This document shows, piece by piece, positions 17,573 to 48,556 of a stretch of 64,000 bases of DNA; position 1 is the stretch's first letter; every line of letters starts with the position of its first letter. Made by a program: the position numbers and the translations under genes. The notes below the pieces were generated by a model. The model saw only the letters and a program-made list of their open reading frames with translations, was not told the origin of the DNA and made no database searches. The DNA is from a virus. The stretch is taken from the IMG/VR virus record IMGVR_UViG_3300009431_000016. One strand, given 5' to 3'.

Positions 17573-18010
17573 ATGGGGGTCGGCATGAATCAGCCAACTG
17601 CGCCTAAAAACCGCACCTTTCTGGGCGACTTGACCGTTCGAAAGACGCCAGCTATTCTCGGAGGCCGCCCAATTTGGGAGCTACGAGAACCGTTCGGCTA
17701 CCAATATGGCTCTAATCTCGAGACATATTCTGTGTGGGTTCCGGCGGAATTCACGACCGATTTTGCCTCAATTCCGCGGTTTTTCTGGCGCCTGATTCCG
17801 CCATCTACCGGTATTGAGGCTGCTGTAATACACGATTATCTGTACCGTGAACGGGTATTCGCGAGACACGTTTGCGACGCAATTTTCCGCGACGCCTTGA
17901 AAACTTGCGGTGTCGGACCATCCACGCGCTGGCTGATGTGGGCCGCTGTTCGGATGGCAGGCCGCCTCGCCTATGGTACGTCAGACGGCAACGAGGAGAG
18001 CGAGGCATGA
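17573..18010 (+). CDS. DUF1353 family protein
   Basis: VPAEFTTDFASIPRFFWRLIPPSTGIEAAVIHDYLY matches the DUF1353 F-TDGASIPR ... HDxLY signature. Confidence 0.5.
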   Translation: MGVGMNQPTAPKNRTFLGDLTVRKTPAILGGRPIWELREPFGYQYGSNLETYSVWVPAEFTTDFASIPRFFWRLIPPSTGIEAAVIHDYLYRERVFARHVCDAIFRDALKTCGVGPSTRWLMWAAVRMAGRLAYGTSDGNEESEA

Positions 18011-18384
18011 AGAAGTACGTGATTATCGTTGTGGCAGTTTTCCTGATTTTGATGCTGCTTCGTGTGTTGGGCCAAGATTCCGCACGGGGTGCCGAGATCT
18101 GGCAGTGGAATCCCACCGCGCCACACCACGATGCAGTTGTCGAGATTAGATGTGATCCAGCGTCCGCAGAACGAGACACCACTCCCGGACGCTGCCCAAA
18201 TTGTGGCGACATTCATGGTCCGCAGGGAGGTAGCAGGGCGGAACCTCAGAGTATGGGGCCGCTGCCAAATGGCGGCAGTTACAACGGAAACGGAAATGGC
18301 TCGCGGTATCGGATCCAACCACGCGGCGACATACGAGGCCTGCCAAACATGTTTGGGCCTAGTAAGTGCGGACCTGGCGGATGA
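18007..18384 (+). CDS. small membrane protein with CPNCG motif
   Basis: N-terminal transmembrane segment KKYVIIVVAVFLILMLL; Gly/Asn-rich tail. Confidence 0.3.
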   Translation: MKKYVIIVVAVFLILMLLRVLGQDSARGAEIWQWNPTAPHHDAVVEIRCDPASAERDTTPGRCPNCGDIHGPQGGSRAEPQSMGPLPNGGSYNGNGNGSRYRIQPRGDIRGLPNMFGPSKCGPGG

Positions 18385-18408
18385 ACTTCTGCCGATGGGT
18401 CGCAGGTT

Positions 18409-28519: not shown

Positions 28520-29917
28520 ATGGTTAAAATGGCCGTAAAAAAGTGTTTTTTGCACCCCAAACAGGCCCAGTTTCGGCGCCTCCGGGAGCGGATCTGCGGC
28601 TTCGTGGGCGGCCGCGGCGTAGGCAAGACCTACGTGGGATCAGTTGATGCCATTTTCAGCACGCCCGGCGGGATGCATGCCATGGCGGTCAGCCCAACTT
28701 ATTCGGACGTGGAAGAGACCACGCTGCCCACTTTCATCCACGCCGCTGAGACCCTTGGCGTGTTACACCGCGTCCGTAGATCGCCCCCGCCGCGGGTCTG
28801 GTTCCGCGCGAGAGACGGCGGGATCGCCGAGATAGTTTTCCGGTCCGGGGAAGAGCCTGAGCGGTTACGCGGTCCCACAAAGTGTCTGCTGTGGATCGAT
28901 GAGGCGTCCGTCCAGGTCGAGGAAGTTTTCAAACTCGGCTTGCCAGTGTTGCGCGAACGCGGGCAGCCCGGTAGGCTGAGTATGACGTTTACCCCAAAGG
29001 GGCGTCGACACTGGACCTATTCTACATTCTTCCGTCGCGTTGGTGAGGAAGAGATCCCGAGGCCCAACACGGCTCTCGTTCAGGCGCACACGAGCGAGAA
29101 TCCGTTCCTTCCCGACGACTACGCCGCGACGATCGCCGAGTACTACTCGTCCGCGATGCGTGAGCAGGAGCTGGCCGGTAAGTTTGTCGACTTACTGGGG
29201 CTGATGTTTAAGCGTCACTGGTTCCAGCTGACAGATCACATTCCGACTGACGCCACCCGTATTCGTTATTGGGACAAAGCCGCCACGGAGGGCGCCGGGG
29301 CGTACTCGTGCGGCGTCCTGGCGTCCAGGACCCAACAGGGCAGGGTGACCGTGGAAGACGTCGTGCGAGGTCAATGGAGTTGGGAGAAGCGGAATCAGAT
29401 CATGCTGCAGACTGCGGAGGCAGACGCCGCGAAGTGGGGAAACGCGGTCATCATCTATTTTGAGCAGGAACCCGGATCCGGCGGCAAGGAGTCGGCACAA
29501 CAGACAATCCGTATGTTGTCGCGGTTTCCTGCCTACCGCGACATCGTGAGCGGGAAAGAATACCAGGTCAAGGACAAGCAAAAATTGCCCGGCGAGGCAA
29601 AAGTTGTCCGGGCTCGGCCATATTCTGCGCAATGTGAGGCTGGGAACGTGTATCTCCGGCGAGCGCCGTGGGTTGGGGATTACCTCGACGAGTTGACAGC
29701 ATTCCCGGAATACAGCTACGCCGACCAGGTGGATGCTAGCAGCGGCGCCTACAACAAGTTGGCGGACCGGTCCGGTTACTGGAATGAGCCACCATCTGCA
29801 ATGAGACCTGACCCTGTGGACGCTGGTGAGCGGTTTGGCATCCATTTTGAACGACACGAGGACGTAGGCCGGGATACCGGCGGGAGGCGAGAAGTGCCTT
29901 GGGAGAGACACCGATAA
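28520..29917 (+). CDS. terL: terminase large subunit
   Basis: N-terminal ATPase Walker A FVGGRGVGKTYVG, Walker B LLWIDEAS; C-terminal nuclease region with conserved acidic residues (YSYADQVDASSG). Confidence 0.8.
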   Translation: MVKMAVKKCFLHPKQAQFRRLRERICGFVGGRGVGKTYVGSVDAIFSTPGGMHAMAVSPTYSDVEETTLPTFIHAAETLGVLHRVRRSPPPRVWFRARDGGIAEIVFRSGEEPERLRGPTKCLLWIDEASVQVEEVFKLGLPVLRERGQPGRLSMTFTPKGRRHWTYSTFFRRVGEEEIPRPNTALVQAHTSENPFLPDDYAATIAEYYSSAMREQELAGKFVDLLGLMFKRHWFQLTDHIPTDATRIRYWDKAATEGAGAYSCGVLASRTQQGRVTVEDVVRGQWSWEKRNQIMLQTAEADAAKWGNAVIIYFEQEPGSGGKESAQQTIRMLSRFPAYRDIVSGKEYQVKDKQKLPGEAKVVRARPYSAQCEAGNVYLRRAPWVGDYLDELTAFPEYSYADQVDASSGAYNKLADRSGYWNEPPSAMRPDPVDAGERFGIHFERHEDVGRDTGGRREVPWERHR

Positions 29918-30044
29918 GACCAGTTTCATTTGCACTAAGATCCTTACAGGAGAATAGATGCCTTGTGGTTCTGTTCACCGCGTTAGCGTGTATAATATGT
30001 GCATCAGGAACGTTTGGCCCGTTTGCAATCTAAAGCACAAGGGG

Positions 30045-31016
30045 ATGGCGATGAGCGAGAAACTGACAGCACTTGAGACAGCACTTGAGGAAACAGCACT
30101 TGAGGAAGAGGCTCGACAGTGGACCGAGAAACCCGGTTTGCTAAACCCGGACAGCCCGCTAGCCTACAGTACAAGCGCCAGGGCGATGCGGTATGCCGCG
30201 GAGTTTATGCACGACGAGTGGTTTCAGTTGCCAAAGACTCGGGAATGGTGCGACATGACGACAGCCGTCATGCACATGACTCGGCAATTGCGGCGTCTTG
30301 CGGCCCATTACTACGTAACCGCTGGACGCGAGATCGAGCGTGTACGAGAGATTAAAGTGGAAGAAATTGAGGCCGAAATTGCAGCCGAATTTGAGCCAGA
30401 CGAAGAGCCTGAGGTGTTGGCGTACTTCGACGATTCCGGCGCCATATTGCCTCCTGGCGTGTGTAGCGTCAACGCGATTCCGGAAGGCACGAAAGATAAG
30501 CCGCCAGTCGTGTGTGATCCGGCGAAGCACATCCGCGGCATATGTGATTGCGACGACTGCGACCACCAGGTGTGTGGAACCGCTGACCAGTGCGTAAACC
30601 CGCAAGCTGACGACAGCTATCATGTCGAGGAGGTGATCACGACGAGATCAGCAGGACCTGAGCAACCTGCTGTTGACGTAAAATTAACCGGGATTTATGC
30701 GGCCACGGACGAGAAGTCACGGCTGCTTGCCGATATTGAACGACTGCAAGGCGCGGCCGCGGAGTCTGCGATACATAACTCCCGAAAAGACAGGATCGCC
30801 AGAGAGGAGGCAGCACGAAGTCGAGATATGGCGAGGTCTGAGATATATGCAATAAACGGGCACATACACAACCTCCGCGAGGCCGCTAAAGGCTGCCCAC
30901 GGTGCACGATCAGCAACGATAACACATTGAGCCATTGTCAGGCGTGTAAGGACGCCATCGCAGTCAAGAGCCGTTGCCTGTTTAATATCGAAGCCGAGCA
31001 ACTGGGAATCAGATAA
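30045..31016 (+). CDS. hypothetical protein with Cys cluster (CDCDDCDHQVCG, CPRCT, CQACK)
   Basis: RBS AAGGGGA before Met 30045; upstream perfect -10 TATAAT at about 29991. Confidence 0.3.
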   Translation: MAMSEKLTALETALEETALEEEARQWTEKPGLLNPDSPLAYSTSARAMRYAAEFMHDEWFQLPKTREWCDMTTAVMHMTRQLRRLAAHYYVTAGREIERVREIKVEEIEAEIAAEFEPDEEPEVLAYFDDSGAILPPGVCSVNAIPEGTKDKPPVVCDPAKHIRGICDCDDCDHQVCGTADQCVNPQADDSYHVEEVITTRSAGPEQPAVDVKLTGIYAATDEKSRLLADIERLQGAAAESAIHNSRKDRIAREEAARSRDMARSEIYAINGHIHNLREAAKGCPRCTISNDNTLSHCQACKDAIAVKSRCLFNIEAEQLGIR

Positions 31017-31135
31017 CCATGGCAGACATTCGCGAATGCATCGCATGTTCGGGCGCTACCTGAAAAGGAGGCAGTTGAGGCGAGTATCTGAGAGACGAAC
31101 GTTTGTAATCCATTTCCGAGTGAAGGAACGAAACC

Positions 31136-32149
31136 ATGACATTGAAAAAAATTCTAATGATGGGCTTCGCGCCCTTCTGTGTTTTGGGATTCGCATGCGA
31201 CGACGGCTGTAGCAAACACTCACACGGCGCCGAACAATCCGCCAACGCCGTGCAGACCGCCGACTTAGCTCCCGAGAACATAGCAGCACATCTACAATCT
31301 TGTTGCGTTACGCTCAAGGCTGGTAGCGCAGAGGGCTCTGGAACGATCTTCCTTCGGAGCGTTGAAGGCCAGTCTGTCGTCTTCATTTTGACGGCCCACC
31401 ATGTTGTTGAGGGCCTGCGCAGGACAAAAAAGGTAATCAATGACAAGGGAGACTCGAAGACTCAGATCTCATATGGCGATGCGCACGTGGTTCAGGAATG
31501 GCTCGACCAGGAGACCGGTGAACGTGTCGGCGAGACAAAAGTTCTGTCAAAAATCCTTACCGTCGACGCCAAGAGAGATATTGCGCTTCTCGAAGTCAAA
31601 GCGAAGGGATGGAAAAATGTCTCGATGCAGTTCAGCCAAGAGGAAAAGTTCATTGGAGCGGGCACGGCGATTATCCACTGCGGCTCGCCCGGCGGTCAGT
31701 CCATGGGTGCGGGAAGTGTGCTCTTCGGCAATGTCGCAAGGGTTGGCTGCCGCATCCCCGAGTTCGGCCCCTTCCCCTTCGACCAACTCGCCTGTCCAGC
31801 CCTCGGAGGATCCTCCGGCGGAATGGTCGTCCGACGAACAGGATCGGAAGCCGGCCGATGGGTCGGAATGATTACGCTTGGTCTACGCGGCGCCGACTCG
31901 TTCCACTGGATGGTCCCTATCAGGGTGTTGCGAGATTGGGCAGAAGAAGTGGACGTCGAGTGGTTGCTCGCCGACGACGGTAAGACGACGCGGGATGACA
32001 TCAACAAGATTCCGCTGGAGAACTCAAAGACCGGTTTCGACAGGAATTCCAAATACTCAGCACCGTCCTTCGTGCCGCCCCATCCTGGCGAACCATCAAG
32101 GCCGGAGTATCACCGGCTGATTCGCGGATCATTGAAGCCGCCTTGCTAG
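31136..32149 (+). CDS. secreted/lipoprotein trypsin-like (S1) serine protease
   Basis: signal peptide ending in Cys (MTLKKILMMGFAPFCVLGFAC); catalytic triad context TAHHVVEG (His), DIALLEV (Asp), GGSSGGMV (Ser). Confidence 0.55.
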   Translation: MTLKKILMMGFAPFCVLGFACDDGCSKHSHGAEQSANAVQTADLAPENIAAHLQSCCVTLKAGSAEGSGTIFLRSVEGQSVVFILTAHHVVEGLRRTKKVINDKGDSKTQISYGDAHVVQEWLDQETGERVGETKVLSKILTVDAKRDIALLEVKAKGWKNVSMQFSQEEKFIGAGTAIIHCGSPGGQSMGAGSVLFGNVARVGCRIPEFGPFPFDQLACPALGGSSGGMVVRRTGSEAGRWVGMITLGLRGADSFHWMVPIRVLRDWAEEVDVEWLLADDGKTTRDDINKIPLENSKTGFDRNSKYSAPSFVPPHPGEPSRPEYHRLIRGSLKPPC

Positions 32150-32195
32150 TGCGGCGAACCGTTTACGGCAAGAAGTGTTGTTTTAAGGCCAGGAA

Positions 32196-33431
32196 ATGTC
32201 AAGACTAGCAAAACTCGCCGCTGCGGCAGCAGAGAGGGCCGCTCAACGGGCCGCACGAAGAGCGTTTGCGCAGTCCCCGATCGGGCAAGTCGAGCAGGGA
32301 TTGCGGCGCCTACGTGCATCTAGCGGAGCCCAGCGTCAATTAGTGCAATCGGTACAGTCTGCTACAGGCGCTGGGATTCTCGGCGACATAGAGAGGGCCG
32401 GCGGAGTCGAGCGGTATGCCATGGGGTTGGCAGCGCAGGTCGCCCTCAGGACACTGCTCGGCTCCTTAGGTCCGCTCGGTATGGTTTTTCAGACTCTTGC
32501 TGAAGCTCAGATGCGCGGTCGCCAGGTCGAACGTCAAGTTGAAGTCGCGACGAGGTTTCTACAGGCTATGGGATATGATGTCCGGAAGGCCGCCGGAACG
32601 ATGCGCAGCGCTATGAGGACGCTAGAGACCAGTCAAAGTCGGAAAGACAAAGACATCGCGAAGGCACTGCGCGGTCTTGCTAAAGAACACGCCAAACAGG
32701 AGAAGCAAGAGAAGCGGCGTGCATCCCGTGTGAATCGAGCCAGGGCAAAACTGCGTACTGCACGGCCGGGCACGAAGCCCCACAGGGACGCGATCGCAAC
32801 CCTGGAACAAGAGGGGATTATCCCCGAGATTTGGCCGGAAGAGCAGGTTATTCCGACCAGGGCTCGCGGCGCCCCACAGCCCGGCGAAGGTATCCTGGAG
32901 AAGGAGATTGAGACACCGGGAAGTAGTAACGTGTTCTCGATCGCCTTCCAGCGCGAAAGTAGATACAACGGTGTAATGTTTGTGACGTTCAAGGCGTGGG
33001 CGCCAGGGATGAAGGGTGCAAAGCGGGCTCATATTCGCGGGCCGATGTATGGCTATTATGGCGTCCCTACAGCCCGTTGGGCGAAGTTCAAGCGAGAGAT
33101 AGGATCGTCCGGTAAGGGCGCTGGGAAGGCCGTCTGGGATCATCTGCGCACCAGGGGTAGTCGATACGAACACCAATTCTCGTATCGGTTGCAGCAAGGC
33201 GCCTTGTTTGCCAATGTGCCTGGTTCGCCAATGCCGGACGATATCCCGGTCCCACCGGGTGGAGTGTACATTCCGCGAAAGGCGACAGCCAAGGGATTTA
33301 AGACCCGCCATTTGCCGATGCAGGGGCCAGGTGGTCGGATGCGAGGTCGATCGGGCGTGATGCGCAGTACGTTGCCAGAAGTCGAATTCCGAGCGAGACC
33401 AAACACGGGGGCAGCCTCGAGGGAGACGTGA
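32196..33431 (+). CDS. KTSC-domain protein
   Basis: C-terminal VMFVTFKAWAPG...YGYYGVPTARWAKFK...SGKGAGKAVWDHLR...YEHQF matches KTSC domain pattern; N-terminal Ala/Arg-rich helix. Confidence 0.4.
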   Translation: MSRLAKLAAAAAERAAQRAARRAFAQSPIGQVEQGLRRLRASSGAQRQLVQSVQSATGAGILGDIERAGGVERYAMGLAAQVALRTLLGSLGPLGMVFQTLAEAQMRGRQVERQVEVATRFLQAMGYDVRKAAGTMRSAMRTLETSQSRKDKDIAKALRGLAKEHAKQEKQEKRRASRVNRARAKLRTARPGTKPHRDAIATLEQEGIIPEIWPEEQVIPTRARGAPQPGEGILEKEIETPGSSNVFSIAFQRESRYNGVMFVTFKAWAPGMKGAKRAHIRGPMYGYYGVPTARWAKFKREIGSSGKGAGKAVWDHLRTRGSRYEHQFSYRLQQGALFANVPGSPMPDDIPVPPGGVYIPRKATAKGFKTRHLPMQGPGGRMRGRSGVMRSTLPEVEFRARPNTGAASRET

Positions 33432-33493
33432 GATGACTAGACCAACCTTGGATGTCCCGAGATCACTGGACGCCGAAAAAGAAGGATGACGCA

Positions 33494-33868
33494 ATGCCAA
33501 AACTCATGGCATACTCGACGCGGTTTCGTCGCGGACAAGGCTGGACCGCTTTGTTTCGCGCTCGATTACCGAGCGGTTCGTATATCACACCAGATACGAT
33601 ATCCACCGTTAACTGCAAGGTGCAGTACCAAGACGGAACTGAAACGTACGATACCAACTTGACGGTTGCAAATGTTGTCAAGAGCGACCTTGTTACGGAT
33701 GACGCGAGGTGGACGAAGGATTCTACTGGCTACAATTTCTTGCATGAGGTGCCAGCTTCCGCGTTTGACGCAGCCGGTTACGTGTGCGTCGAGTTTATGT
33801 TTACTCCAGTGGCTGGCCAAACTTTCATTGTGGCGTACAATGGGCCAGTTTTTAGTAAATTAACATGA
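33494..33868 (+). CDS. hypothetical protein
   Basis: ORF in structural region. Confidence 0.25.
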   Translation: MPKLMAYSTRFRRGQGWTALFRARLPSGSYITPDTISTVNCKVQYQDGTETYDTNLTVANVVKSDLVTDDARWTKDSTGYNFLHEVPASAFDAAGYVCVEFMFTPVAGQTFIVAYNGPVFSKLT

Positions 33869-33903
33869 TCGCAAAAGGCGTTCTATAAAGAAATGGAATA
33901 ATC

Positions 33904-34485
33904 ATGACGCTTTTAGACTCAACAGCATGGTCTGCGGCCGAAAAGCAGAACCTCGAAATGAACACGTCCGGCAGCGGCTACAGAAAGATCGCCACCTTTT
34001 CGCCGCCCGCCGACACTGCTTGGTGTGTAGTCGGCTGCGTGTTGGCCGCCGCCGTTGAAAAAACAGACGAAGCGACGCTGATTGCCAACATCGAGTCGCT
34101 CTCGCAAGTAACCTCCGTCCATGACCCGCGAGTGTGGCTTGACGCGCCTGCCAGCATCGAAGACGCCGCGAAGGAATTGAGATTGCACGTCAATGCCAAC
34201 GAATCGGGCAATCAAGGCTTTGGCGGGGATGTGTGGGGATATAGCCGCAAATTCAGTGAGAATATACTGCTGACATCATACCTAGGAAAGGCGATGTTTG
34301 TGCTCGCGCTACGAGTTCCTGCTGACCTCGACGCTGCTGCTATTACCGCCTTGGAGACCGCAATCACTGGAGTAACTGGGATTTTAAGCACCGAGCACCT
34401 CGTTGGTGGATTAGTGCCCGCCAACTCCAGCAGCGTGAGTCTAAGCGTAGAGATCCGATTCCGCATTGATGACATTTCAACGTAA
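33904..34485 (+). CDS. hypothetical virion-associated protein
   Basis: 193-aa ORF. Confidence 0.3.
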   Translation: MTLLDSTAWSAAEKQNLEMNTSGSGYRKIATFSPPADTAWCVVGCVLAAAVEKTDEATLIANIESLSQVTSVHDPRVWLDAPASIEDAAKELRLHVNANESGNQGFGGDVWGYSRKFSENILLTSYLGKAMFVLALRVPADLDAAAITALETAITGVTGILSTEHLVGGLVPANSSSVSLSVEIRFRIDDIST

Positions 34486-34492
34486 CTGAACC

Positions 34493-35905
34493 ATGACGAC
34501 GAAGTATTACCGATCCAACAACTCTGATTGGAACACGGACGCCAACTGGTCAACAACCAGTGGCGGCGGCGCGGATACTACGTTTCCAACGGCCGGCGAT
34601 GACGCAATCTTCGACGACAACAGCGGCAACTGCACTCTGGACTTAGCTGCCGCTTGCGACAAGATCACCATTGGCACAGTCGGGGCTCTCTACACTGGCA
34701 CGCTAGACGCCGCCACTTACGACGTTACCATCGGCACGGGTGGCTTGGACTGCACCTATGGCGGCTCGGCTACGCTCGACTTGGGCAGCGGGACTTGGAC
34801 TTGTAGCGGGGATTGGGACTCTCAGGATTTAGGGACGCTAACACCTGGCACATCGCGCGTCAAACTAACTGGTTTGACAAAAAACGTCCGCACTCACGGC
34901 ACTAACGGCCCGCTGTATGAGTTGGAAATAACAGGATCTTACACACACACAGACTCCTCCAGCTATCTCGCGATCACTAGCGGCCTCTATGTGTCGGGTT
35001 CGTTGATTAACAGCGACACAATCTATGCCACGAATGCCGACGTTCAAAACACTGGATCGATCACCGGCGCGGCCAAGATACAATTGGGGTATTTAACCAA
35101 TTCGTCTAACATCAGCGTTCAGTCTGGCACGCTCTCTGTTCCACTAGACGTACAGTGGGGAAGTACAATCTGCGCGGCGACATACGGGGGTGCTGTGACA
35201 TTTTCGTGCAGTTCGTCTTTGACTCGCACTAGCACATGGGGAGCGGGTACGTACACCTTTGAGGATGTTTTTGCTGTTGATGAAGCACATCCAACGGGGA
35301 CATACGTAATGGACCTGGCCACCAACAATCCGGATATGGCGTTCCAGGGCAACGTGACAATATCAGAGTCAGGCGGCGGAACAGTTACCTGGACCAAAGG
35401 CACGGGCACAATCACGCTCTCGGGCTCGTCGAACCAAACCATTACTACCCTCAACAAGCCCCTCGAAGATATCGTCATCGACAAGACTGCGGGCGACATA
35501 CAGCTTGCTGACGGCCTGACTACTGAATCCTTCACTGGCACATCTACAGGCACGGGCGACTTCGACCCCAACGAACAGACACTCACCATCGGCGGCAACT
35601 GTTCCTGGGCTGCGGCGTTCACGATGGAGGGCAGCGCCGACCATATGAATGGCAGCGACTGGCAGGTGACGGGCAACTTTACTGCGAATGGACAATCGTT
35701 GTCCGCTACTGCTGGCTGGGATTTAGACGTTACAGGAACGGCCGTGGCGTCTGGTACGGGCGATGTTGAATATTGCACAGCAGGCGGAACGGAGATAGAC
35801 GCGAGCGCTGGGCCATGGACGGATAACGGGAATAATACTAACTGGAATTTTGGGGCCGCGGGTGGCCGGATTAATGTAATGGTTGGCGGTGGAATTTTTG
35901 GTTGA
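34493..35905 (+). CDS. Thr/Gly/Ser-rich beta-structure protein (fiber or adhesin-like)
   Basis: 470 aa, about 35% T+G+S; repetitive TGT/GTG motifs typical of beta-helix or fiber proteins. Confidence 0.35.
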   Translation: MTTKYYRSNNSDWNTDANWSTTSGGGADTTFPTAGDDAIFDDNSGNCTLDLAAACDKITIGTVGALYTGTLDAATYDVTIGTGGLDCTYGGSATLDLGSGTWTCSGDWDSQDLGTLTPGTSRVKLTGLTKNVRTHGTNGPLYELEITGSYTHTDSSSYLAITSGLYVSGSLINSDTIYATNADVQNTGSITGAAKIQLGYLTNSSNISVQSGTLSVPLDVQWGSTICAATYGGAVTFSCSSSLTRTSTWGAGTYTFEDVFAVDEAHPTGTYVMDLATNNPDMAFQGNVTISESGGGTVTWTKGTGTITLSGSSNQTITTLNKPLEDIVIDKTAGDIQLADGLTTESFTGTSTGTGDFDPNEQTLTIGGNCSWAAAFTMEGSADHMNGSDWQVTGNFTANGQSLSATAGWDLDVTGTAVASGTGDVEYCTAGGTEIDASAGPWTDNGNNTNWNFGAAGGRINVMVGGGIFG

Positions 35906-35929
35906 CGGAAAGAATAAAGGAACGCAAAA

Positions 35930-37243
35930 ATGGTGCAGCCAACTCCAGATGGCCTGACACTAAACGCCGGTTCGGGCGGAAGTGATCTGTACGGGGACAC
36001 AATCGGCACGCAGTTTGCCGAAGGCGTTCTGCTGTGTTACTCCACAGGCGACGGGTCTGCCAATTTTGTGCAGGACGACACTGGTTTGCCAATAGTACCA
36101 GCTACCGGCGCCACGTTTCAGTTGGCGGCCGGAACCGCAGCCATCGGAAAGCTTGCTGCGAATAGCGGTGTGGATATTGGAGACGTTGATGTTATATCCA
36201 TACCAGCTACTGCGACCGAAGCTGCGGCCTTGCCGTCTGTGTTCATGGTTGTAGCTGGAGACGATGGAACAGACACGCATCCGTTGCAGACAAATGCCGT
36301 GGGCGATCTCAAGGTAACTCTTGACAGTGAGACAGTGGCAGTCACGCAAAGCGGTGCGTGGAACGTCACGAACATCAGCGGCACGGTGAGTCTGCCGACG
36401 GGAGCTGCGACCGAAGCCACCTTAAATACCCTGGACGGAAAAGTAACCGCATGCAATACGGGTGCGGTCGTCATTTCGTCCGGGACCGTCACAACAGTCT
36501 CTGCAGTCACGGCCATCACTAATGCACTTCCTGCTGGCGACAACAACATTGGCAATGTAGATGTCGTTACGCTCCCGGCTGGCAACCTGGGCATGCAAGC
36601 CATGTCTGCGTCTTTATCAACTGTGCCGGCGTCCGATATTACAGACGCCACCTACATTGGGGATATCAAATTTGGCGAAAGCTTACCGGCTGGCACAAGC
36701 GCCATTGGGACCGTTACGGCTGTTGGCGCCGCGGCGGAAGACGCGGCAACCTCCGGGAATCCTGTGCTGTTGGCAGGTCGGTATGACTCAAGTGAGCGTA
36801 CCACTGAAACTGGTGACGTTACGACACTGGCAGCATCCGCCCAGGGCTGGATGATGGTCGGTAATCAGTCGTCTTATCTGTTCGATGGAGCCGTGCGGTG
36901 TGAAGTCAAGCGTGCGTCTGGCGTGGCTGCAACTGGAACCGTCGAGATGATACCGGCAGCCGCCGGCAAAAAAGCCAGGATCTTGGCTCTTACACTCATT
37001 CCGACATCAACAACTGTAACGAATGTTTACGTCGCCTCCACAACAGATACCGATATGCTCGGGAATGCGGCCAACCCGATCCCGCTATCAACTGCAGTCG
37101 CCGGAAATGATATGCCGGGCTTTGTTTTGCCGTACAATCAGGGCGGATGGATGCAATGCAGCACAGCCAATGAGGCCATTAACGTGATACTTTCCGCTGC
37201 GCAAGACGTTATTTGGTCTGCGACTTGGATTGAGGTTAACTGA
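35930..37243 (+). CDS. Ala/Thr/Gly-rich structural protein
   Basis: 437 aa with repetitive AT-rich amino-acid tracts. Confidence 0.35.
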   Translation: MVQPTPDGLTLNAGSGGSDLYGDTIGTQFAEGVLLCYSTGDGSANFVQDDTGLPIVPATGATFQLAAGTAAIGKLAANSGVDIGDVDVISIPATATEAAALPSVFMVVAGDDGTDTHPLQTNAVGDLKVTLDSETVAVTQSGAWNVTNISGTVSLPTGAATEATLNTLDGKVTACNTGAVVISSGTVTTVSAVTAITNALPAGDNNIGNVDVVTLPAGNLGMQAMSASLSTVPASDITDATYIGDIKFGESLPAGTSAIGTVTAVGAAAEDAATSGNPVLLAGRYDSSERTTETGDVTTLAASAQGWMMVGNQSSYLFDGAVRCEVKRASGVAATGTVEMIPAAAGKKARILALTLIPTSTTVTNVYVASTTDTDMLGNAANPIPLSTAVAGNDMPGFVLPYNQGGWMQCSTANEAINVILSAAQDVIWSATWIEVN

Positions 37244-37244
37244 C

Positions 37245-37403
37245 ATGCCGGCTGGATCTTGGCTGTTGAATCTCTTGTTTGGAGGCACTATTGCCGGGAC
37301 AGGCATCGCCGCCGATACGTCGGAAGATGGCGATTCATTTCTTGCTGGAGCGGATGGAGCTGATAGCTTTCTTGCTGGAGCGGATGAAGCTGATAGCTAT
37401 TGA
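37245..37403 (+). CDS. small ORF (52 aa) with hydrophobic N-terminus and duplicated SFLAGADxAD
   Basis: below the ORF-track threshold; contains a 30-bp tandem repeat; fills the gap before the giant gene. Confidence 0.2.
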   Translation: MPAGSWLLNLLFGGTIAGTGIAADTSEDGDSFLAGADGADSFLAGADEADSY

Positions 37404-37415
37404 TGATTGGAGAAA

Positions 37416-40400
37416 ATGATGGACGATTTCCCGCCACGCAATGTTGGTGTCAGCGAACGCGTTATCAATTTAGCTGACCTTAATAAGTACCCTGCTACAG
37501 TTGTCAACGAGCAGACCAAGGATCCAGCGCACGGGGTCGACGGCGCCCCGCCGAATTTCGCTAGACCAATGGTTCCGCACATCCATACGGTGCAGGGTCG
37601 CGTTGGGACTATCTCTCGCGTCTATCGTCCCTCTGACGAAGCCCTCCGTCACTCGTATCACAACGCTCGTTATATGCGCAACGAGTGCGGCATCATGGAA
37701 TGCCTCGAAGGTCGGCAACGCGGGTCGATTTTACTGAAGTGGCATCTTGAGCCAGAAGACGAAAAGTCAACCGACCAGCAAGCCCTGGTACAACAGCTAA
37801 CTGACATCATTGACCGCATCCCGGACTTCACGGAGTATCGCAGAAATCTCCTCGAGGCCCTGTGGTTTGGAAAATATGCAACCGCACATAATTGGGGCTG
37901 GGACTGGGTGAAGGGCCGCCGGCGGAAAGTCATTAAGACGTGGGAACCGCGACATGGCGATAAGATCGTTTTCCGTTACGACGATGGCCGTCACAATTAC
38001 GACCCGCGTCAGATCGGCATCCGGATTGGTGCCGATTATCAATGGGACGTGCACCACAAAAACTTTCTCGGTGAACCGCACAAAAAGGTCGAGGCTACCG
38101 ACCAAGGTCTTGCGTATTTCCTCAATCAGTGGGAGCGAGACTTCCTCATTGCCATACATAAACACATCATAGAAGACGGTGCCTATGAAGACCCGGAACA
38201 GGCTGGTAGCATTCATGGCATCGGCATCAGGTCGCGCATTTATTGGACGTGGTATCAAATGTCTGAGTGCACGGCATGGCTGATGGAATATCTCGAACGC
38301 ACAAGTTTTGGCGTTGAGCTGTGGCCGTACAAAGCTGGCAACCCGACCAGCGAACAGAAGACGCGCGAAGCCGCGCAAAAGCGAATCGGCGGCGGCCGGT
38401 CGATCGTCTTGGTGCCCATTCAGGAAGGTGAGGATCCGGCGTTGTGGCAAGTTCAGCACTTGGAACCTGGTCTGGCTGGTGCGGATGCCGTGAAAGACGT
38501 CATACAATCGTTCTTCCTGCAAAGAATCAAGCGATACATACTCGGGCAAACCCTCACGAGCGAAGCAGAGGCTACTGGGCTCGGCTCTGGTGTTGCGGAC
38601 GCTCACCTCGCGACTTACATGGATATCGTGCGATACGACGCCCGTAAACTCGAAGAAACCCTCACGACGGACCTGGTACGACCTTTGCAGCTGCAAAACT
38701 TCCCAGCATCGCACAGTATTCGGATCAAGTTCAAAATCGACACGGAAGCTGACAACGCGTCCGAAATGCTCGAAGCTTACGAGCGAGCGTGGGCGATGGG
38801 GTTGCGGATCAAGGCTGATGACGTGGCGAGTATGATTGGCGCCGCGAAGCCCGATACCGACGACGAGACACTTCGTAACCCGCGGCTCGAACAGGCCGAA
38901 CAACAGCAGGCAATGCTGGAACAGCAGCAAGCGATGGGTCTGGGGGCCGGTCCGGGGCAACCGGGGCAACCAGGACAACCCGGCCAGCCAAACGGCTTGC
39001 CCACGCAGGTCCCCGGCTGGACTCCACCCAGCAGTGACAATGAAGACGTGGAAGAATTTGATGATCCAGAAGGCCCGGATGGAGGAAAGAATGTCAATCT
39101 GATCCCTGAGTTTCGTCCTGGCGGGCCGTTTGATGATGAGGAAGAGCGGCACGCCAAACAGTGGGACGAGAGTAAACACCCGCGTGCTGCAGACGGGAAA
39201 TTCGGACACGGCGAAGGCGCCATTGCTCCCGGTGTAGCAGAAAAGTTGGCTCTCGCAGAGGCAAATGAGGAGGGCGTGCAGTACGCCCAGCTTGGCTTCA
39301 ACTTCAAAGAGGAAGACCATCCACGCGACGCTTCCGGGAAATTCACTGAAGGTGCCGGAGAGAAGAAAAAGCCCGCGGCCGCCGAAGCCGACAAGCCCTT
39401 CGAACTGAAGAATAAAGCCCCCTGGAAGAAAGCCGAATTTACGCCAGAGAAAAAGAAACAGGGGCAGCTCCTGGCCGGGTTGGACCTGTCGCCTGGACAG
39501 ACTGATTTTCTGGAGGAACGGCCCGAGTTGGCCGCGGAGACGCATCCAAACCCCAAGCCTGAGCTTGCGGCAGAGACACACCCAGAGAGCAGCGGGGACG
39601 CGTCAGCTAAAGACTGGGCTGACAAGATCATGCCGGCGGGCAAGTTCATTGACGAAGATGGTAACGAGCGAGGCGGAGACTGGTTTTGGGACGTGGTTGG
39701 CGAGATGTCCGACGAACAGCTCCAGGAAGCCCTAGAGCACGTTCGCGAGAACGGTACGCCACAACAGCAGAGGTGGCTTGTTCCGCCAATCAAGAGTGAG
39801 CTCGGCAAGCGAGCCAAGGGTGAGCCAAAGGAACCGCCGGCCGCCGCCGCGAAGCAAGCAAAAGCCGTGAAGGAACCGTGGGAGATGACTGGATATGAGT
39901 ATGCAACTCAGCATTCTGGGAGAATGAGGGAGTTGCGGGAAGCAAAACCGAGACCGATCGATAAATTATACGGAAAGAATGGCCCCACGCCCGAACAGGC
40001 AGCCGAACACAAGCAATTGATGAAAAGATGGAATCGTGCTTATCGTGCTGCATCTAAGGCGCATAAGGCATACCTGGAAGATCAAGGGAAACATCAGCGA
40101 CTTGTTAAACAGGCCATCGACGACGGCAAACCTGTCCCGGCTAAGGTTCTCGAAGGCTACCCAAGCCTCGCTTCTGATAAGGAACGAGAACGCCATACCA
40201 TGCAAAACGACCAGTCTCTCGGCGCACTCTTCCGCGAGTGCTATCGCAATATGTCCTCTCCTGGCCAGCAGTCAATCATGGGAAAGGGCGGAACCGGAAG
40301 CCGATCAGCCAAGACTCAACAGGGACTGAAGTGGATCACGATCGGAGGTTCTCCGGGCGAAGGCGGCGAGCACGAGGGCGGCACACCGGTCAAAATAGAC

Positions 40401-42887
40401 GAGAAGGGCCGAATACATGGCGGGTCCGAGGCATTGACCGGAGAGACGTTGGGGAAGATTGACAAGGACAAGGTTGGCGACAAGGGTGGCGGGAAGGCTG
40501 GCGGCGGGAAGCCAGAGAAGGTGTCGGAGGGTGGCGGCCCTGCAATGAAAGACATAGCTCCTGGGCACGAAAAGAAGATCCAAGATGCCTTGGCCGCCAT
40601 CGCTGAGCATGACCCGCAATTACTGGCCGGCCTCAAGCAGATTCAGGGCGGTACGCTGCCTCCAGGATTGAAGGCCAATGCGGTCGCAAGTACATCGTCT
40701 GGTACGATTTGGCTGCCTGACGGAAAAGCACCAGAAGAGCATTCAACTCTGGTTCACGAGCTAACGCATTTAAGGCAAGCAGCGGAAGGCAAAATTCCAG
40801 AAGGCGGTCGAGATGTAATGGAGCCAGACGCTTACAATCAACTCGAAATGGAGGCACGCCGCGCAGCCGCAAAGTACCAAGAACACGTTGATGAGAAACG
40901 GATCATGGACTATCTGAGTAAGTCTCAGGGAAAAGTCGGCCTGCGCGACCTTCGTACCGCCCTGGGCCATCCAAAGGTCGATCCTCAGGACCCGCTGTCA
41001 AACCAGATTCATAAAGCACTGGCCGGACTGCGGGACGCCGGTCGGGTTCAGGCTCACGAACCGGAACGCGGGGAGCCTAGCTTTTCGGCGAAGCCGGCTC
41101 AGCGGGCGGCCGCGGAAGGCAGTGAGGAGTCGGCTCCCTCCGCTTCTCCGCCATCGACTCCCACTGAGGCCTCCGTGAAAGCCCAGCCAACCCTAAAGGA
41201 ACCCACAGCCGTATCGATACAGGGACACGATATGGACGTAGGCCAGTCCCGGGGAATGTGGTTTTTCCGGAGGTCATCTGCAGCTGGTTGGGTTGGGGCC
41301 AGTCCTGGCCTGTCTGCAGCCATTGAGCAACAGCTCGGAGGCGGACAGGAAGAGCCTACAGAAACCCCTAAGGAGCGCGGTCGCGCGTCAGCAAAACAGT
41401 CACTAGACGAGGCTGTAGCCAGTGCTGTGGGTGACTCGCCGGAAGATCAGGCCGGATTCAGGACCGTCGTCGATGAGGTATGGAAACGGCGAAACAGAGA
41501 GGCGGCGGCCGAAAATAGCTCACTCAGGAACTTGCTTGGCAATTTCGGATACGATGGCGCCAGACAGGGAGCACTAATACGGACCATACAAAAGACAGAG
41601 GACCCAGACCAGCTGACAAAAGGCAAGTCTGGGCTGAGGAAGCAGTGGGATCAAATCGTGGAATACGCGATTGCACACCACCCAGATCTCTTGGAATGGG
41701 GTGGTGGCGAGTTTATCGGGAAAGACGATGCCGAATACGCACTATTCAACCGCCTAAAAAAGGGGCTGGTGAAGGCCCCGCCGCGACATGACCCGGAAGT
41801 AATCCAGGAGGCCCTGGACTACACGGAGACGGCGTCCGGCGGCGAGTTCGGAGAAGGTGAGGGCGATCTAAGTGGCCCGTGGGATGAATCACTGGCCGCA
41901 CAGTCTGAGTCGTTTTCGGCTGGGATGTGGGAGCGAGCTGTAATTTACGCGAGGCGAGGCAATGCTGAGCAATATAAACAATTGACGACATTTGTGGAAA
42001 GCGAACACCCGCGAAATGCAGATGGGGAATTTACAGATAAGGCCCGTGGACCTACAATGAAAACAGTGATTCGCAGTGGCAAATCATTTGTCATGGGTGA
42101 CGGATCGCCGCTTCCTACGTACATTCCGCGAATCCCTCCAGCATGGACAAAAGTATCGGTTGCAACCTCGCCGGATGCCCCTCTCTTGGTGACTGGGATT
42201 GATGCGAAAGGGCGAAAACAAAGCATCTATTCTACCTCTCATGCCATGCGGGCTGCTGCAGCGAAATTTGCGAAGATATCAGAATTGGTTGCGAAACGCA
42301 ATGAAGTTATAAATGAAATGCGAGAAGCTACGTCTCGCGGGAATACGGAGGCAGAGGTCGCCCTGCTGATCAACGAAACGGGCTTGCGCCCTGGCTCTGG
42401 GCGGGACACAAAGGCTGAGAAACAGGCATATGGTGCGACAACGCTTCTGGGGCGTCATGTTGTCGTGACCGATAGTGGCGTAAGACTGGTTTTTACAGGC
42501 AAGAAGGGCGTGGCTATTGACGTGGCAGTCACCAATCCTGCTATTTCGTCCATGTTGGCCAAACGCAAGCTGACAGTTGGCGAGCATGGCAGGCTGTTTG
42601 ACACCAATGATCAGAAATTGCGGGCGTATGTGGCCACTCTTGATGGTGGAAAATTCAAGCCCAAAGACTTCCGTACTCTTGTCGGAACGACTCTTGCATC
42701 AGATTCAGTGCGGGAGAGGGTGCCAGCCAAAAATGATAAAGAATACAAGAAGCAAGTGCGTGAAATCGCACAGCACGTAGCGGCAAAGCTGGGCAATACA
42801 CCGACCGTGGCGCTGCAGTCGTATATTGATCCGACGGTTTTTAGTCGATTGCGGCCAATTTCACATGAGGAATCAGGTAATGAATGA
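37416..42887 (+). CDS. giant multidomain virion protein: portal-like N-terminal region, 3x EHPR-x-DGKF motifs, HExxH motif, C-terminal type IB topoisomerase domain
   Basis: 1820-plus aa. QQQAMLEQQQAM-GQPGQPGQPGQP linker at about aa 500. EHPRAADGKF, DHPRDASGKF and EHPRNADGEF motifs. LVHELTHL HExxH. C-terminal LRPGSGRD / GATTLLGRHV / FTGKKG / KDFRT / ALQSYIDP aligns to topoisomerase IB catalytic motifs, with the active-site Tyr in SYIDP. ORF track starts at TTG 37407; ATG 37416 preferred. Confidence 0.7.
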   Translation: MMDDFPPRNVGVSERVINLADLNKYPATVVNEQTKDPAHGVDGAPPNFARPMVPHIHTVQGRVGTISRVYRPSDEALRHSYHNARYMRNECGIMECLEGRQRGSILLKWHLEPEDEKSTDQQALVQQLTDIIDRIPDFTEYRRNLLEALWFGKYATAHNWGWDWVKGRRRKVIKTWEPRHGDKIVFRYDDGRHNYDPRQIGIRIGADYQWDVHHKNFLGEPHKKVEATDQGLAYFLNQWERDFLIAIHKHIIEDGAYEDPEQAGSIHGIGIRSRIYWTWYQMSECTAWLMEYLERTSFGVELWPYKAGNPTSEQKTREAAQKRIGGGRSIVLVPIQEGEDPALWQVQHLEPGLAGADAVKDVIQSFFLQRIKRYILGQTLTSEAEATGLGSGVADAHLATYMDIVRYDARKLEETLTTDLVRPLQLQNFPASHSIRIKFKIDTEADNASEMLEAYERAWAMGLRIKADDVASMIGAAKPDTDDETLRNPRLEQAEQQQAMLEQQQAMGLGAGPGQPGQPGQPGQPNGLPTQVPGWTPPSSDNEDVEEFDDPEGPDGGKNVNLIPEFRPGGPFDDEEERHAKQWDESKHPRAADGKFGHGEGAIAPGVAEKLALAEANEEGVQYAQLGFNFKEEDHPRDASGKFTEGAGEKKKPAAAEADKPFELKNKAPWKKAEFTPEKKKQGQLLAGLDLSPGQTDFLEERPELAAETHPNPKPELAAETHPESSGDASAKDWADKIMPAGKFIDEDGNERGGDWFWDVVGEMSDEQLQEALEHVRENGTPQQQRWLVPPIKSELGKRAKGEPKEPPAAAAKQAKAVKEPWEMTGYEYATQHSGRMRELREAKPRPIDKLYGKNGPTPEQAAEHKQLMKRWNRAYRAASKAHKAYLEDQGKHQRLVKQAIDDGKPVPAKVLEGYPSLASDKERERHTMQNDQSLGALFRECYRNMSSPGQQSIMGKGGTGSRSAKTQQGLKWITIGGSPGEGGEHEGGTPVKIDEKGRIHGGSEALTGETLGKIDKDKVGDKGGGKAGGGKPEKVSEGGGPAMKDIAPGHEKKIQDALAAIAEHDPQLLAGLKQIQGGTLPPGLKANAVASTSSGTIWLPDGKAPEEHSTLVHELTHLRQAAEGKIPEGGRDVMEPDAYNQLEMEARRAAAKYQEHVDEKRIMDYLSKSQGKVGLRDLRTALGHPKVDPQDPLSNQIHKALAGLRDAGRVQAHEPERGEPSFSAKPAQRAAAEGSEESAPSASPPSTPTEASVKAQPTLKEPTAVSIQGHDMDVGQSRGMWFFRRSSAAGWVGASPGLSAAIEQQLGGGQEEPTETPKERGRASAKQSLDEAVASAVGDSPEDQAGFRTVVDEVWKRRNREAAAENSSLRNLLGNFGYDGARQGALIRTIQKTEDPDQLTKGKSGLRKQWDQIVEYAIAHHPDLLEWGGGEFIGKDDAEYALFNRLKKGLVKAPPRHDPEVIQEALDYTETASGGEFGEGEGDLSGPWDESLAAQSESFSAGMWERAVIYARRGNAEQYKQLTTFVESEHPRNADGEFTDKARGPTMKTVIRSGKSFVMGDGSPLPTYIPRIPPAWTKVSVATSPDAPLLVTGIDAKGRKQSIYSTSHAMRAAAAKFAKISELVAKRNEVINEMREATSRGNTEAEVALLINETGLRPGSGRDTKAEKQAYGATTLLGRHVVVTDSGVRLVFTGKKGVAIDVAVTNPAISSMLAKRKLTVGEHGRLFDTNDQKLRAYVATLDGGKFKPKDFRTLVGTTLASDSVRERVPAKNDKEYKKQVREIAQHVAAKLGNTPTVALQSYIDPTVFSRLRPISHEESGNE

Positions 42888-46951: not shown

Positions 46952-47374
46952 ATGGTACGAGAAAATCCAACCTTTATGGCCGGTGGGAATATTGTGCCCA
47001 GTCGGTTCGTGAAATGGAATCTCGGCGAGGATAATACTGTTATCCAGGCAACGGCTAACGCCAAGATTCAAGGCATTGCGCAGGAGGGCAGCCGTGAGGC
47101 GCCGATTCCTTCCGTCAGCACCGTCTACGCCGCACAAGACGGCGAAGAAATTCACGTTTACGGGCAGGGCGAAGTGTGTCTGCTCGAACTGGGCGGAACG
47201 GTTGCGGCCGCAGACGACCTGAAGTCCGATGCGAACGGCAAGGGGGTCGTTGTGACGGCCGGAACGACCACGCAAGAGGTCGGCGCCCAGGCGTTGCAGT
47301 CGGGCGTAAGTGGAGAGAAGATTCGCGTCCAGGTCTTGCTGAAGGCCGAGGGCCAGACTGTCATCTCCAGCTGA
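46952..47374 (+). CDS. putative head decoration protein (DUF2190-like)
   Basis: 140 aa, Gly/Ala/Val-rich beta protein located between scaffold-like and capsid-like genes. Confidence 0.3.
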   Translation: MVRENPTFMAGGNIVPSRFVKWNLGEDNTVIQATANAKIQGIAQEGSREAPIPSVSTVYAAQDGEEIHVYGQGEVCLLELGGTVAAADDLKSDANGKGVVVTAGTTTQEVGAQALQSGVSGEKIRVQVLLKAEGQTVISS

Positions 47375-47470: not shown

Positions 47471-48556
47471 ATGAGGAACGAAATCATGGCAAGTGGAACA
47501 GCTGTTCATCCGAGTGGCCTTAATACTTTTGTGAAAGACCACCGTGCGACCGGCGGATTGATCGTAGACTTCTCTCGCAACCCAACTAAGTTTGCGATCA
47601 ACCGTTACATCCAATTGCGGAAGGTGCAAAAAAGCTCTGGCTATTTTTTACAGATGACCGTCGAGGAAGCAGGACGAATCCTCAATACGAATCTTTCGGA
47701 TTTCGTATGGCCAGATTCTCAGCCTCGTCCCGAGCGGCGTGAAGGAACGGAAACGTTCAAGTTCACGGATTACCTCACGCAGCGCTACGAGTATGGATTC
47801 ATGCTCGGTGACAAGGCGATCGAACAGGCCGACTGGGACATCGTTGGCACACACTCGCGAATCAAAGCGCAACAAGCGATGACCGCGAGAACGCAACTCG
47901 TCAAGACGGCCCTCGACACGATCGGCGACGGCGCCGGAGGTGGTGATACCACGCACACGTCCGCCGTCTCTTCGATTACCGGCAATACCGGTAAGTGGTC
48001 TGCCTCGACCACGCAGCGCCAGGACGTCAAGCGATCCCTTAATTCCTCCGCCGAGATCATCTTGGCTGACACGCTGGGCGCCGTCGAAGAGGAAGCGTTG
48101 ATGCTGGTCGTTTCTCCTAACGTTGCGATCCAGTTGTCACAGTGTCAGGAGATCGTAGATCATATCAAGGGATCTCCCGGTGCGACCGATCAGGTCAAGG
48201 GCAATGCCGCATTCGGTAACCCGAATGCACGCTGGGGTCTCCCGCTGCAGCTGTACGGCTTCGATGTGGTCGTTGACGCGACCTACAAGGTCTCAACAAT
48301 CAAGGGCGCTAGCTCGACGACTCGCGAGGCTGTCCTCGGAACCGACGTTGCCTATTTGGTCTCGCGACCGGGCGACTTGGTGGCGGCCTCCGGCGGTCCC
48401 TCTTTCTCGACTCTCATGATCTTCGCTTATGAGGAGATGACCGTCGAGACACTGCGAGACTCCGACCACAGAAGGGTTAGGGGATCGGTTGTGGATGACA
48501 TCGACGTAGTTGTGACGGCGCCTGCCACTGGGTTCCGGTTCACCTCGGCCGTTTGA
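47471..48556 (+). CDS. putative major capsid protein
   Basis: 361 aa, position and size; followed by a strong stem-loop. Confidence 0.45.
   Translation: MRNEIMASGTAVHPSGLNTFVKDHRATGGLIVDFSRNPTKFAINRYIQLRKVQKSSGYFLQMTVEEAGRILNTNLSDFVWPDSQPRPERREGTETFKFTDYLTQRYEYGFMLGDKAIEQADWDIVGTHSRIKAQQAMTARTQLVKTALDTIGDGAGGGDTTHTSAVSSITGNTGKWSASTTQRQDVKRSLNSSAEIILADTLGAVEEEALMLVVSPNVAIQLSQCQEIVDHIKGSPGATDQVKGNAAFGNPNARWGLPLQLYGFDVVVDATYKVSTIKGASSTTREAVLGTDVAYLVSRPGDLVAASGGPSFSTLMIFAYEEMTVETLRDSDHRRVRGSVVDDIDVVVTAPATGFRFTSAV

Follow-up and report, generated by a model that had tools for sequence, protein, structure and literature searches.

A type IB topoisomerase domain at the C-terminal end of a polyvalent Mu-type portal protein in an uncultured tailed phage

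The gene analysed here lies in a stretch of viral DNA of 64,000 nucleotides (nt), IMG/VR record IMGVR_UViG_3300009431_000016, hereafter called the window. Its product starts as a Mu-type phage portal and ends in a type IB topoisomerase (TopIB), and at least six modules can be distinguished along it: portal, predicted zincin, winged helix, two uncharacterised modules shared with other proteins, and TopIB. Phages and conjugative elements encode polyvalent proteins with 2-15 distinct domains per polypeptide, and effector domains fused to portal and MuF proteins have been described among them and argued to be packaged, injected and processed by a zincin peptidase (PMC5512222). The best-supported view is that the window protein is a phage-type polyvalent protein of this kind (Iyer et al. 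2017) with TopIB as its cargo. We consider it very likely that TopIB is present in the phage head. That it is packaged, delivered and catalytically active is the explanation that we favour, with less assurance.

The open reading frame (ORF) is intact and uninterrupted from 37407 to 42887 on the plus strand, and no frameshift separates the domains into different proteins. A previous reading of this DNA, made without database searches (hereafter the sequence-only reading), gave a length of 1826 amino acids (aa) together with a start at 37416. The ORF itself stands, and the two figures are off by a trivial three codons: 1826 aa are counted from TTG 37407, while the likelier start, ATG 37416 with GGAG 3 nt upstream, gives 1823 aa plus the stop. 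Residue numbering follows the 1823-aa version throughout.

The assignment of the C-terminus to TopIB, proposed in the sequence-only reading from motif blocks, was borne out by a complete catalytic set and by Pfam, Protein Data Bank (PDB) and fold matches. Topoisom_I (PF01028) matched with an E-value of 3.8e-17, at 58.7 bits for the whole protein and 62.9 bits for the C-terminus alone (cut-off 23.7). The PDB sequence search retrieved the Deinococcus radiodurans TopIB (2f4q, E 6.4e-18) and the variola TopIB (2h7f, E 1.5e-6). The motifs LRPGSGRD (aa 1657), GATTLLGRHV (1673), FTGKKG (1693), KDFRT (1750) and ALQSYIDP (1799) are all present. Residues R1658, K1696, K1750, R1753, N1794 and Y1803 align to vaccinia R130, K167, K220, R223, H265 and Y274 (numbering as in PMC2666729), with the catalytic Tyr, Arg and Lys in register. 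The substitution of His by Asn at N1794 is the bacterial state. Residues R1658, K1696, R1753, N1794 and Y1803 correspond to R137, K174, R239, N280 and Y289 in the Deinococcus numbering. All six catalytic positions are invariant columns in an alignment of 66 sequences, the window protein and 65 relatives.

Structure prediction, which had been proposed as a check, also gave the TopIB fold. The AlphaFold2 (AF2) model built from the 66-sequence alignment had a mean predicted local distance difference test (pLDDT) of 93.4 and a predicted template modelling score (pTM) of 0.84. Its top Foldseek hits (3igc, 2h7g, 2h7f, 3m4a and 2f4q; E ~1e-13, 264-295 columns) are variola TopIB-DNA complexes and Deinococcus TopIB and span both domains; the separate vaccinia N-terminal domain (1vcc) matched as well. 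By profile, the N-terminal domain matched Top1B_N_bact weakly, and its fold was confirmed by the model. The TopIB domain is without any sign of decay and, judging from its residues, should very probably be catalytically competent. To our knowledge, TopIB is the only topoisomerase class that needs neither ATP nor single-stranded DNA. The poxvirus enzyme is in addition independent of Mg2+.

At the other end, the N-terminal 515 aa are a complete Mu-type portal, the sole recognisable one in the window. Portal_Mu (PF06074, DUF935, gp29-like) matched with E 1.3e-30 and 107.3 bits (cut-off 23.9), covering profile positions 5-334 of 336; phrog_113, annotated as portal protein, matched with E 7e-20, and the closest solved structure by sequence was the portal 8rka (E 3e-7). 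These matches decide for a portal and against MuF, two options that the sequence-only reading had left side by side for the first ~500 aa. Its Q/GP linker is also there, as a Q-rich and Gly/Pro-rich segment with a 9-nt tandem repeat at 38952-38980. No second portal was recognised among the 30 larger ORFs of the window by Pfam scans, or by PHROG searches of the nearest ORFs. Since it is the only recognisable portal, the window protein is presumably the functional portal of the phage. Portal rings consist of 12 subunits, with the C-terminal crown turned towards the inside of the capsid. In Mu-type portals, both crown and wing remain within the capsid (PMC11445458). As the enzyme is covalently part of the sole recognisable portal, packaging is expected, and the earlier description of the protein as polyvalent and virion-packaged is the best supported. 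The label polyprotein, used in the same description, implies cleavage, which for this arm is predicted only from analogous proteins.

Among 304 significant homologs, all of the 120 listed are Mu-type portals whose extensions are long and variable, and 119 of these align across the portal region. The extensions carry LPD1, ART-PolyVal, InPase, PBECR3, 2H/Acb1-like, NUDIX, zeta-toxin and methyltransferase domains. One Mu-portal polyvalent protein (P0010) combines ART-PolyVal with a 2H/Acb1-like domain, the latter directed against the cyclic-oligonucleotide-based antiphage signalling system (anti-CBASS). Besides the window protein, eight full-length Mu-portal proteins end in TopIB, which is present in the truncated P0208 as well. 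The same TopIB clade was also found on two other portal families, Phage_portal (PF04860; L009) and Phage_portal_3 (PF06381; three examples, L011-L013), fused to MuF (PF04233) in both orientations (P0165, L015, L018), and fused to a GNAT-like region. Most of the nearest relatives of the TopIB module are proteins of 270-490 aa on phage-like contigs, 45-59% identical to it. In a rough neighbour-joining tree, fused and stand-alone TopIB modules were intermingled, and the carrier state changed at least 11 times. On this tree, TopIB appears to have been attached independently to several carriers located in the head interior. Such independent attachment is the strongest comparative argument that TopIB is meant for the virion interior.

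A short conserved motif, the HPR tag, links many of these proteins. The three copies of E/D-HPR-x-[AS]-x-G-[KE]-F that the sequence-only reading pointed out (WDESKHPRAADGKF, FKEEDHPRDASGKF and FVESEHPRNADGEF) were all found and belong to a wider motif, [WF]-x-E-x-x-H-P-R-x-x-x-G-[KQE]-F, with [ED][RKQ][YH] often in front of it and a stretch rich in glycine behind. Its strict core occurs 119 times in 88 of the 241 retrieved proteins, with 0.05 occurrences expected from shuffles. Positions beyond the search pattern are conserved too, namely W/F at -5 and E at -3 (117 of 119). The tag is located at module boundaries. Of the first seven Mu-portal fusions retrieved, five (P0001, P0005, P0007, P0009, P0036) have it directly before TopIB, and a sixth, P0101, has a degenerate KVKR form at this boundary. 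It also stands before TopIB in L006 and L011-L014, which include fusions to a different portal family. Many phage TopIBs encoded on their own carry it in a short leader at the N-terminus, as do a stand-alone version of the zincin (P0241) and an ATLF-like peptidase encoded near a MuF-TopIB gene. Within the window, the tag is confined to the portal-TopIB gene.

No Pfam, NCBIfam or PHROG family covers the HPR tag, and it is neither mentioned in the main text of PMC5512222 nor found in the MuF-toxin paper (PMC5576092). A tblastn search with the tag in deposited phages, for which BLAST is ill-suited given so short a motif, gave one marginal hit in a Helicobacter prophage protein of the 'HI1409 family'. 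DUF5661 (PF18905), considered as a possible family for the tag, matched P0021 at aa 575-612 and is absent from the window protein. The tag has the appearance of a mark borne generally by the head cargo of phages, and it might serve as a processing site or as a docking or address peptide. Two ORFs for trypsin-like serine proteases lie among the late genes of the window, at 31136-32149 and 18409-19992 (Trypsin_2, E 5e-9, plus a weaker Trypsin match), and a related TopIB-portal phage, L001, has a 520-aa Trypsin gene at 17992-19554. Trypsin-fold proteases are, as far as we know, unusual in phage head modules. Such proteases could cut the arm after the Arg of the tag; they are absent from L002-L005, so that their co-occurrence with the tag is inconsistent.

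Two contigs, L024 and L001, share TerL, portal, scaffold and capsid-like genes with the window in synteny, at 47-67% identity, and differ in cargo. In L024, from a Planctomycetaceae metagenome-assembled genome (MAG), a 67%-identical portal is followed by the tag and then by an LPD1/HEWGH module; in L001, a 51%-identical portal is followed by a short arm and then by TopIB. A cargo swap on a shared head module is the cassette-like polymorphism expected of the polyvalent class.

The middle of the window protein is a mosaic. In BLASTP searches against the retrieved homologs, residues ~580-740, 940-1050 and 1300-1540 each matched a different subset of portal fusions. For the modules at aa 940-1030 and 1300-1525, no curated family (Pfam above threshold, NCBIfam) and no solved structure was found. 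The latter is 46.7% identical to P0008 (aa 1862-2016) and also matches P0016, P0015 and P0010, in all four of which its counterpart lies outside every Pfam domain found. A divergent InPase was considered for this module, P0008 and P0016 both carrying PF18823, and was rejected because InPase maps elsewhere in these two proteins. A match to RNase E/G at aa 1364-1426 was discarded as noise (12.9-16.4 bits against a cut-off of 326).

The metallopeptidase-like HExxH motif of the sequence-only reading (LVHELTHL, aa 1112) lies in a module with predicted zincin topology. Pfam scores for this module fell under the cut-offs (DUF6782, 24.2 bits against 27; eCIS_core, 20 against 22; M91, weak), and neither BLASTP against the portal homologs nor a word-index search gave a match for the region. 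An exhaustive HMMER search identified five homolog clusters conserving HELTHLRQ...GGR...PD...LE.EA, one member of which (P0243) passes the Peptidase_M91 cut-off. Another, P0244, packs a divergent portal, the same zincin and TopIB into 958 aa, like a condensed form of the window protein; TopIB occurs in only this one of the five clusters, which are too few for statistics. The AF2 model of aa 1040-1245 (pLDDT 93.9) starts with a helix, followed by a sheet of three strands, the HExxH helix and another long helix with a conserved Glu, so that zincin topology is predicted with high confidence. It agrees with the MPTase core, described as an HExxH helix and a Glu-bearing helix on a three-stranded sheet and as a hub of polyvalent proteins (PMC5512222). 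The top Foldseek hit in the PDB was yeast Wss1 (5xbv), with a weak match (E 7e-3; template modelling (TM) scores TMq 0.29 and TMt 0.40), and further minigluzincins, abylysin (4jiu) and PprI (8sln), were among the fold matches. No WLM/SprT match was obtained in Pfam at E <= 10 for the module or E <= 1 for the whole protein.

The zincin is followed by a domain with a three-helix bundle and a beta-hairpin wing, that is, a winged helix. Its family, with no match in Pfam, comprises ~37 homolog clusters (P0246-P0283) with the signature NPVxxAL..LRDxGxV..EPxxGEPxF. Members occur alone, beside DUF3560 and within InPase/PBECR3 polyvalent proteins.

We propose that the portal gene encodes the portal together with a C-terminal cargo arm of ~1300 residues. 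Because the crown faces the capsid interior and the portal is dodecameric, ~12 copies of the arm, TopIB included, would lie inside the head next to the DNA channel. At infection the arm, by analogy with other polyvalent proteins, would probably be cut into modules and leave through portal and tail with the DNA. Either the arm's zincin domain or a protease of the phage could do the cutting, possibly at the tags or close to them. We hold release and ejection of the TopIB arm to be evenly poised. As TopIB needs neither ATP nor single-stranded DNA, it could start working as soon as a cell is infected, ahead of all phage gene expression. It might relax the incoming genome, favouring early transcription and replication, or it might relax the host chromosome, leading to host shut-off or counter-defence. 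The virion TopIB of vaccinia promotes early transcription, and expression of vaccinia TopIB is harmful to Escherichia coli; both targets therefore have a precedent. Head-internal proteins leaving with the DNA are known from phage P1 (DarA/Hdf; PMC12810830).

Several points weigh against this proposal. Cleavage, ejection and the target DNA are all steps that we infer. Twelve arms of ~145 kDa would be a large capsid load, and processing or partial incorporation of the full-length protein might be involved. The HExxH module stays below Pfam thresholds, with no curated zincin family above its cut-off. In many cases, relatives of TopIB are encoded by stand-alone genes away from any recognisable head module, and the enzyme could therefore also have an ordinary part in phage replication or transcription. 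A related TopIB was present in only two of 50,697 deposited phage genomes, stand-alone in both; no cultured phage carries the fusion, which is known only from uncultured phages.

Delivery is not the only use that a topoisomerase tethered to the portal could have. It might act as a swivel inside the capsid, relieving torsion of the phage's own DNA that rotation by the packaging motor, or unwinding during ejection, would build up, an explanation that we regard as rather unlikely. The fusion would bring 12 copies of TopIB to the DNA channel, at its opening on the capsid side, where an enzyme independent of ATP could operate, and attachment to portal or MuF, both portal-vertex proteins, recurs across unrelated families. 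DNA topology also matters for packaging in T4, in which topoisomerase II mutations impair the process and a torsional-compression model has been proposed (PMC10893049). However, TopIB is placed away from the crown, at the tip of a partly disordered arm of ~1000 residues, and many relatives are stand-alone, away from head genes. Moreover, sister proteins bear host-directed effectors (ADP-ribosyltransferases (ART), RNases, Acb1-like domains), which argues for the arm being a delivery vehicle.

A wider view, distinctly unlikely in our estimation, would be that tailed phages repeatedly evolved a virion-loaded TopIB, either fused to portal or MuF or addressed by the tag, that acts on their own genome and whose adducts are cleared in cis. 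Here the enzyme would be tethered via three unrelated portal families or MuF, and the HPR tag (~15-25 residues) would be an address or processing signal for capsid cargo. At the portal, TopIB would serve as an ATP-free swivel or in end-joining or capping, and the Wss1-like protease and the winged helix would clear DNA adducts.

Action at the genome end seems very improbable to us. TopIB would be pre-charged covalently on, or act at, a specific site near the portal-held end, and on entry would circularise the genome by joining ends in a strand transfer resembling TOPO cloning, or cap the end as a guard against exonucleases, with the Wss1-like zincin and the winged helix removing the covalent adduct. 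TopIB chemistry permits strand transfer to a foreign 5'-OH, and Wss1, the best PDB fold hit of the zincin, is a protease for Top1-DNA adducts. A winged-helix DNA-binding fold adjoins the zincin, and P0244 repeats the set of portal, same zincin and TopIB. Yet the Wss1 match is weak (E 7e-3, TM 0.29/0.40), minimal zincins resemble one another, no WLM/SprT match was found in Pfam, the association with TopIB in one of five zincin clusters is not significant, and most TopIB fusions have no zincin.

An artefact or relic (an assembly chimera, frameshift-merged genes or a non-catalytic DNA-binding remnant of TopIB) is scarcely credible, for although the sequence is metagenome-like and the exact protein, looked up from two start codons, has no record elsewhere, the same fusion in at least eight other independently assembled proteins and the recurrence on other carriers rule out an assembly artefact, an open frame of 5.4 kb is beyond chance, and six catalytic residues invariant in 66 sequences and a fold at pLDDT 93 speak against a remnant.

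Should the TopIB of this portal be packaged and active, as we favour, it would be, as far as we could find, the first phage counterpart of the virion topoisomerase of poxviruses. Control of DNA topology at genome entry or packaging would then be under selection in phages, and this selection would be strong, since the same enzyme was attached independently to three portal families and MuF. A DNA-topology activity would join the injected phage effectors, which comprise ADP-ribosyltransferases, RNases, degraders of nucleotide signals and methylases. The HPR tag is possibly a more general prize than the TopIB fusion: if it is an address or cleavage signal, packaged proteins could be predicted from sequence alone, and phage heads could be filled with foreign ones. 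The TopIB module, being self-contained (~270 aa) and expected to need no cofactor, is also a candidate reagent enzyme. Three points stand out: the parallel with poxviruses, the way in which TopIB was convergently recruited to several carriers, and the tag, which is apparently general.

The gene lies among head genes, as the sequence-only reading had it: TerL, scaffold and capsid-like genes were found in the same late/structural region (Table 1). Among the 30 larger ORFs of the window, Pfam identified TerL, a small-terminase-like helix-turn-helix protein, replication genes and a glycosyltransferase. The ten nearest neighbour ORFs gave almost no Pfam or PHROG matches; the phage has diverged too far for its head module to be annotated in detail. 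The labels of one MAG and of one protein hint at Planctomycetes as hosts, and the Planctomycetaceae MAG contig CALALR010000029.1 suggests a candidate host group.

Table 1. Features of the portal-TopIB gene, its head-gene neighbours and further tag-bearing records (positions in the window unless a contig is named).
Feature	Residues (aa)	Position (nt)	Strand	Basis or remark
Whole gene, portal-polyvalent protein		37416..42887	+	Single ORF; alternative TTG start 37407
Mu-type portal domain	1-515	37416..38960	+	Pfam core aa 85-474 = 37668-38837
Q-rich and Gly/Pro-rich linker	493-560	38892..39095	+	Read from sequence
HPR tag copy 1 (WDESKHPRAADGKF)	583-596	39162..39203	+	
HPR tag copy 2 (FKEEDHPRDASGKF)	630-643	39303..39344	+	
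Small uncharacterised module	~940-1030	40233..40505	+	Common to ~18 other portal polyvalent proteins (BLASTP)
HExxH zincin-fold module, MPTase-like	1051-1160	40566..40895	+	Homologs, AF2 model, weak Pfam
HExxH motif	H1114-E1115-x-x-H1118	40755-40769	+	Glu-helix LEMEA at ~aa 1143-1147
Winged-helix domain	1161-1238	40896..41129	+	Pattern LRxLRxxLG..NPVxxAL..LRDxGxV..EPxxGEPxF
Uncharacterised module	~1300-1525	41313..41990	+	Common to other portal polyvalent proteins
HPR tag copy 3 (FVESEHPRNADGEF)	1526-1539	41991..42032	+	Directly upstream of TopIB
Type IB topoisomerase	1545-1815	42048..42860	+	Pfam, PDB sequence, alignment and fold matches
TopIB N-terminal beta domain	~1548-1605			
TopIB catalytic domain	~1607-1812			
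TopIB catalytic residues	R1658, K1696, K1750, R1753, N1794, Y1803	42387, 42501, 42663, 42672, 42795, 42822-42824		
TerL (large terminase)		28520-29917		Pfam scan of window ORFs
Scaffold protein		46952-47374		PHROG match
Probable major capsid protein		47471-48556		49% identity to syntenic gene of related phage
Tag-bearing records outside Mu-portal fusions		L004 4961-5002		Many among P0121-P0240; also P0241, P0242, L004, L006, L011-L014

Other features of the window were recorded alongside. TerL and portal are ~7.5 kb apart in the window (28520-37415) and ~2.2 kb apart in the related contig L024 (2-3786). The extra genes in between include those for the trypsin-like protease and for two proteins of 470 and 437 aa, the latter two with no Pfam or PHROG match. 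Directly upstream of the portal gene, a gap of ~170 nt contains a 30-bp unit (TTTCTTGCTGGAGCGGATGAAGCTGATAGC) twice in tandem (37338-37398, 96% identical), which could be a regulatory or binding site. Inside the gene, a sigma-70-like site, TTTACA-17-TACAAT (10/12), spans 42030-42058, up to Met1548 at the start of the TopIB module. An internal promoter before TopIB was considered and rejected, such sites being within chance expectation (5 found, 2.8 expected).

Further along, an ORF of 1196 aa (56523-60113) contains long repeats rich in histidine, in which D.H.A.. and HTH.G motifs recur; it has no Pfam match and may encode a tail fibre or a metal-binding repeat protein. A group-1 glycosyltransferase is encoded among the late genes (55495-56520), an N6/N4 DNA methylase at the left end of the window (497-1369), and two proteins resembling S-adenosylmethionine (SAM) methyltransferases at the right end (62089-63704, minus strand). 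These genes may serve DNA- or virion-modification functions.

Among known systems, polyvalent proteins are the parent class. The window protein shares with them a giant polypeptide encoded among the head genes of a terminase-portal phage, a portal carrier, an HExxH module predicted to be of the zincin type, several unrelated modules with low-complexity linkers between them, and cargo varying among close relatives; its homologs bear LPD1, ART-PolyVal, InPase, PBECR3 and 2H domains. It differs in having TopIB as terminal cargo, in a zincin that falls under every curated zincin cut-off, and in the HPR boundary tag, which is not described there. The sequence-only reading took phage structural proteins fused to TopIB for a class not yet described. 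This needs correction as regards the parent class, which is known, and holds for the cargo, which is apparently undescribed: TopIB is absent from the main text of PMC5512222, and no report of TopIB fused to phage structural proteins was found in the literature searched, in which subscription journals were incompletely covered.

The MuF polymorphic toxins (Jamet et al. 2017, PMC5576092) likewise join a head-protein carrier to a variable C-terminal enzymatic domain, and MuF-TopIB fusions exist; in the window protein, by contrast, the carrier is the portal itself. The word 'topoisomerase' is absent from the MuF-toxin paper. In jumbo phages, TopIB is encoded by stand-alone, unfused genes and has been discussed as an enzyme of replication or topology (PMC7824862).

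The bacterial TopIBs, from Deinococcus radiodurans (2f4q/3m4a) and Pseudomonas aeruginosa (PAT, PMC2666729), share the R-K-R-N-Y set and the N-terminal domain and give the best sequence match (E 6e-18). They are stand-alone cellular enzymes of ~340 aa, whereas the phage clade is separate and often has an N-terminal leader with the HPR tag. The poxvirus TopIBs (vaccinia and variola; 2h7f, 3igc, 1a41) belong to the same family, with the same two-domain fold and the same catalytic residues except for the change from His to Asn. In these eukaryotic viruses the enzyme occurs as a free core protein of 314 aa, unlike the end of a tailed-phage portal fusion; the phage enzyme is nearer to bacterial TopIB, with Asn as in Deinococcus, and a role in early transcription could be drawn from poxviruses by analogy only. 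The likeness to poxviruses, already noted in the sequence-only reading, thus holds for family and fold, and it would extend to the place of the enzyme inside the virion before infection, which is predicted for the phage.

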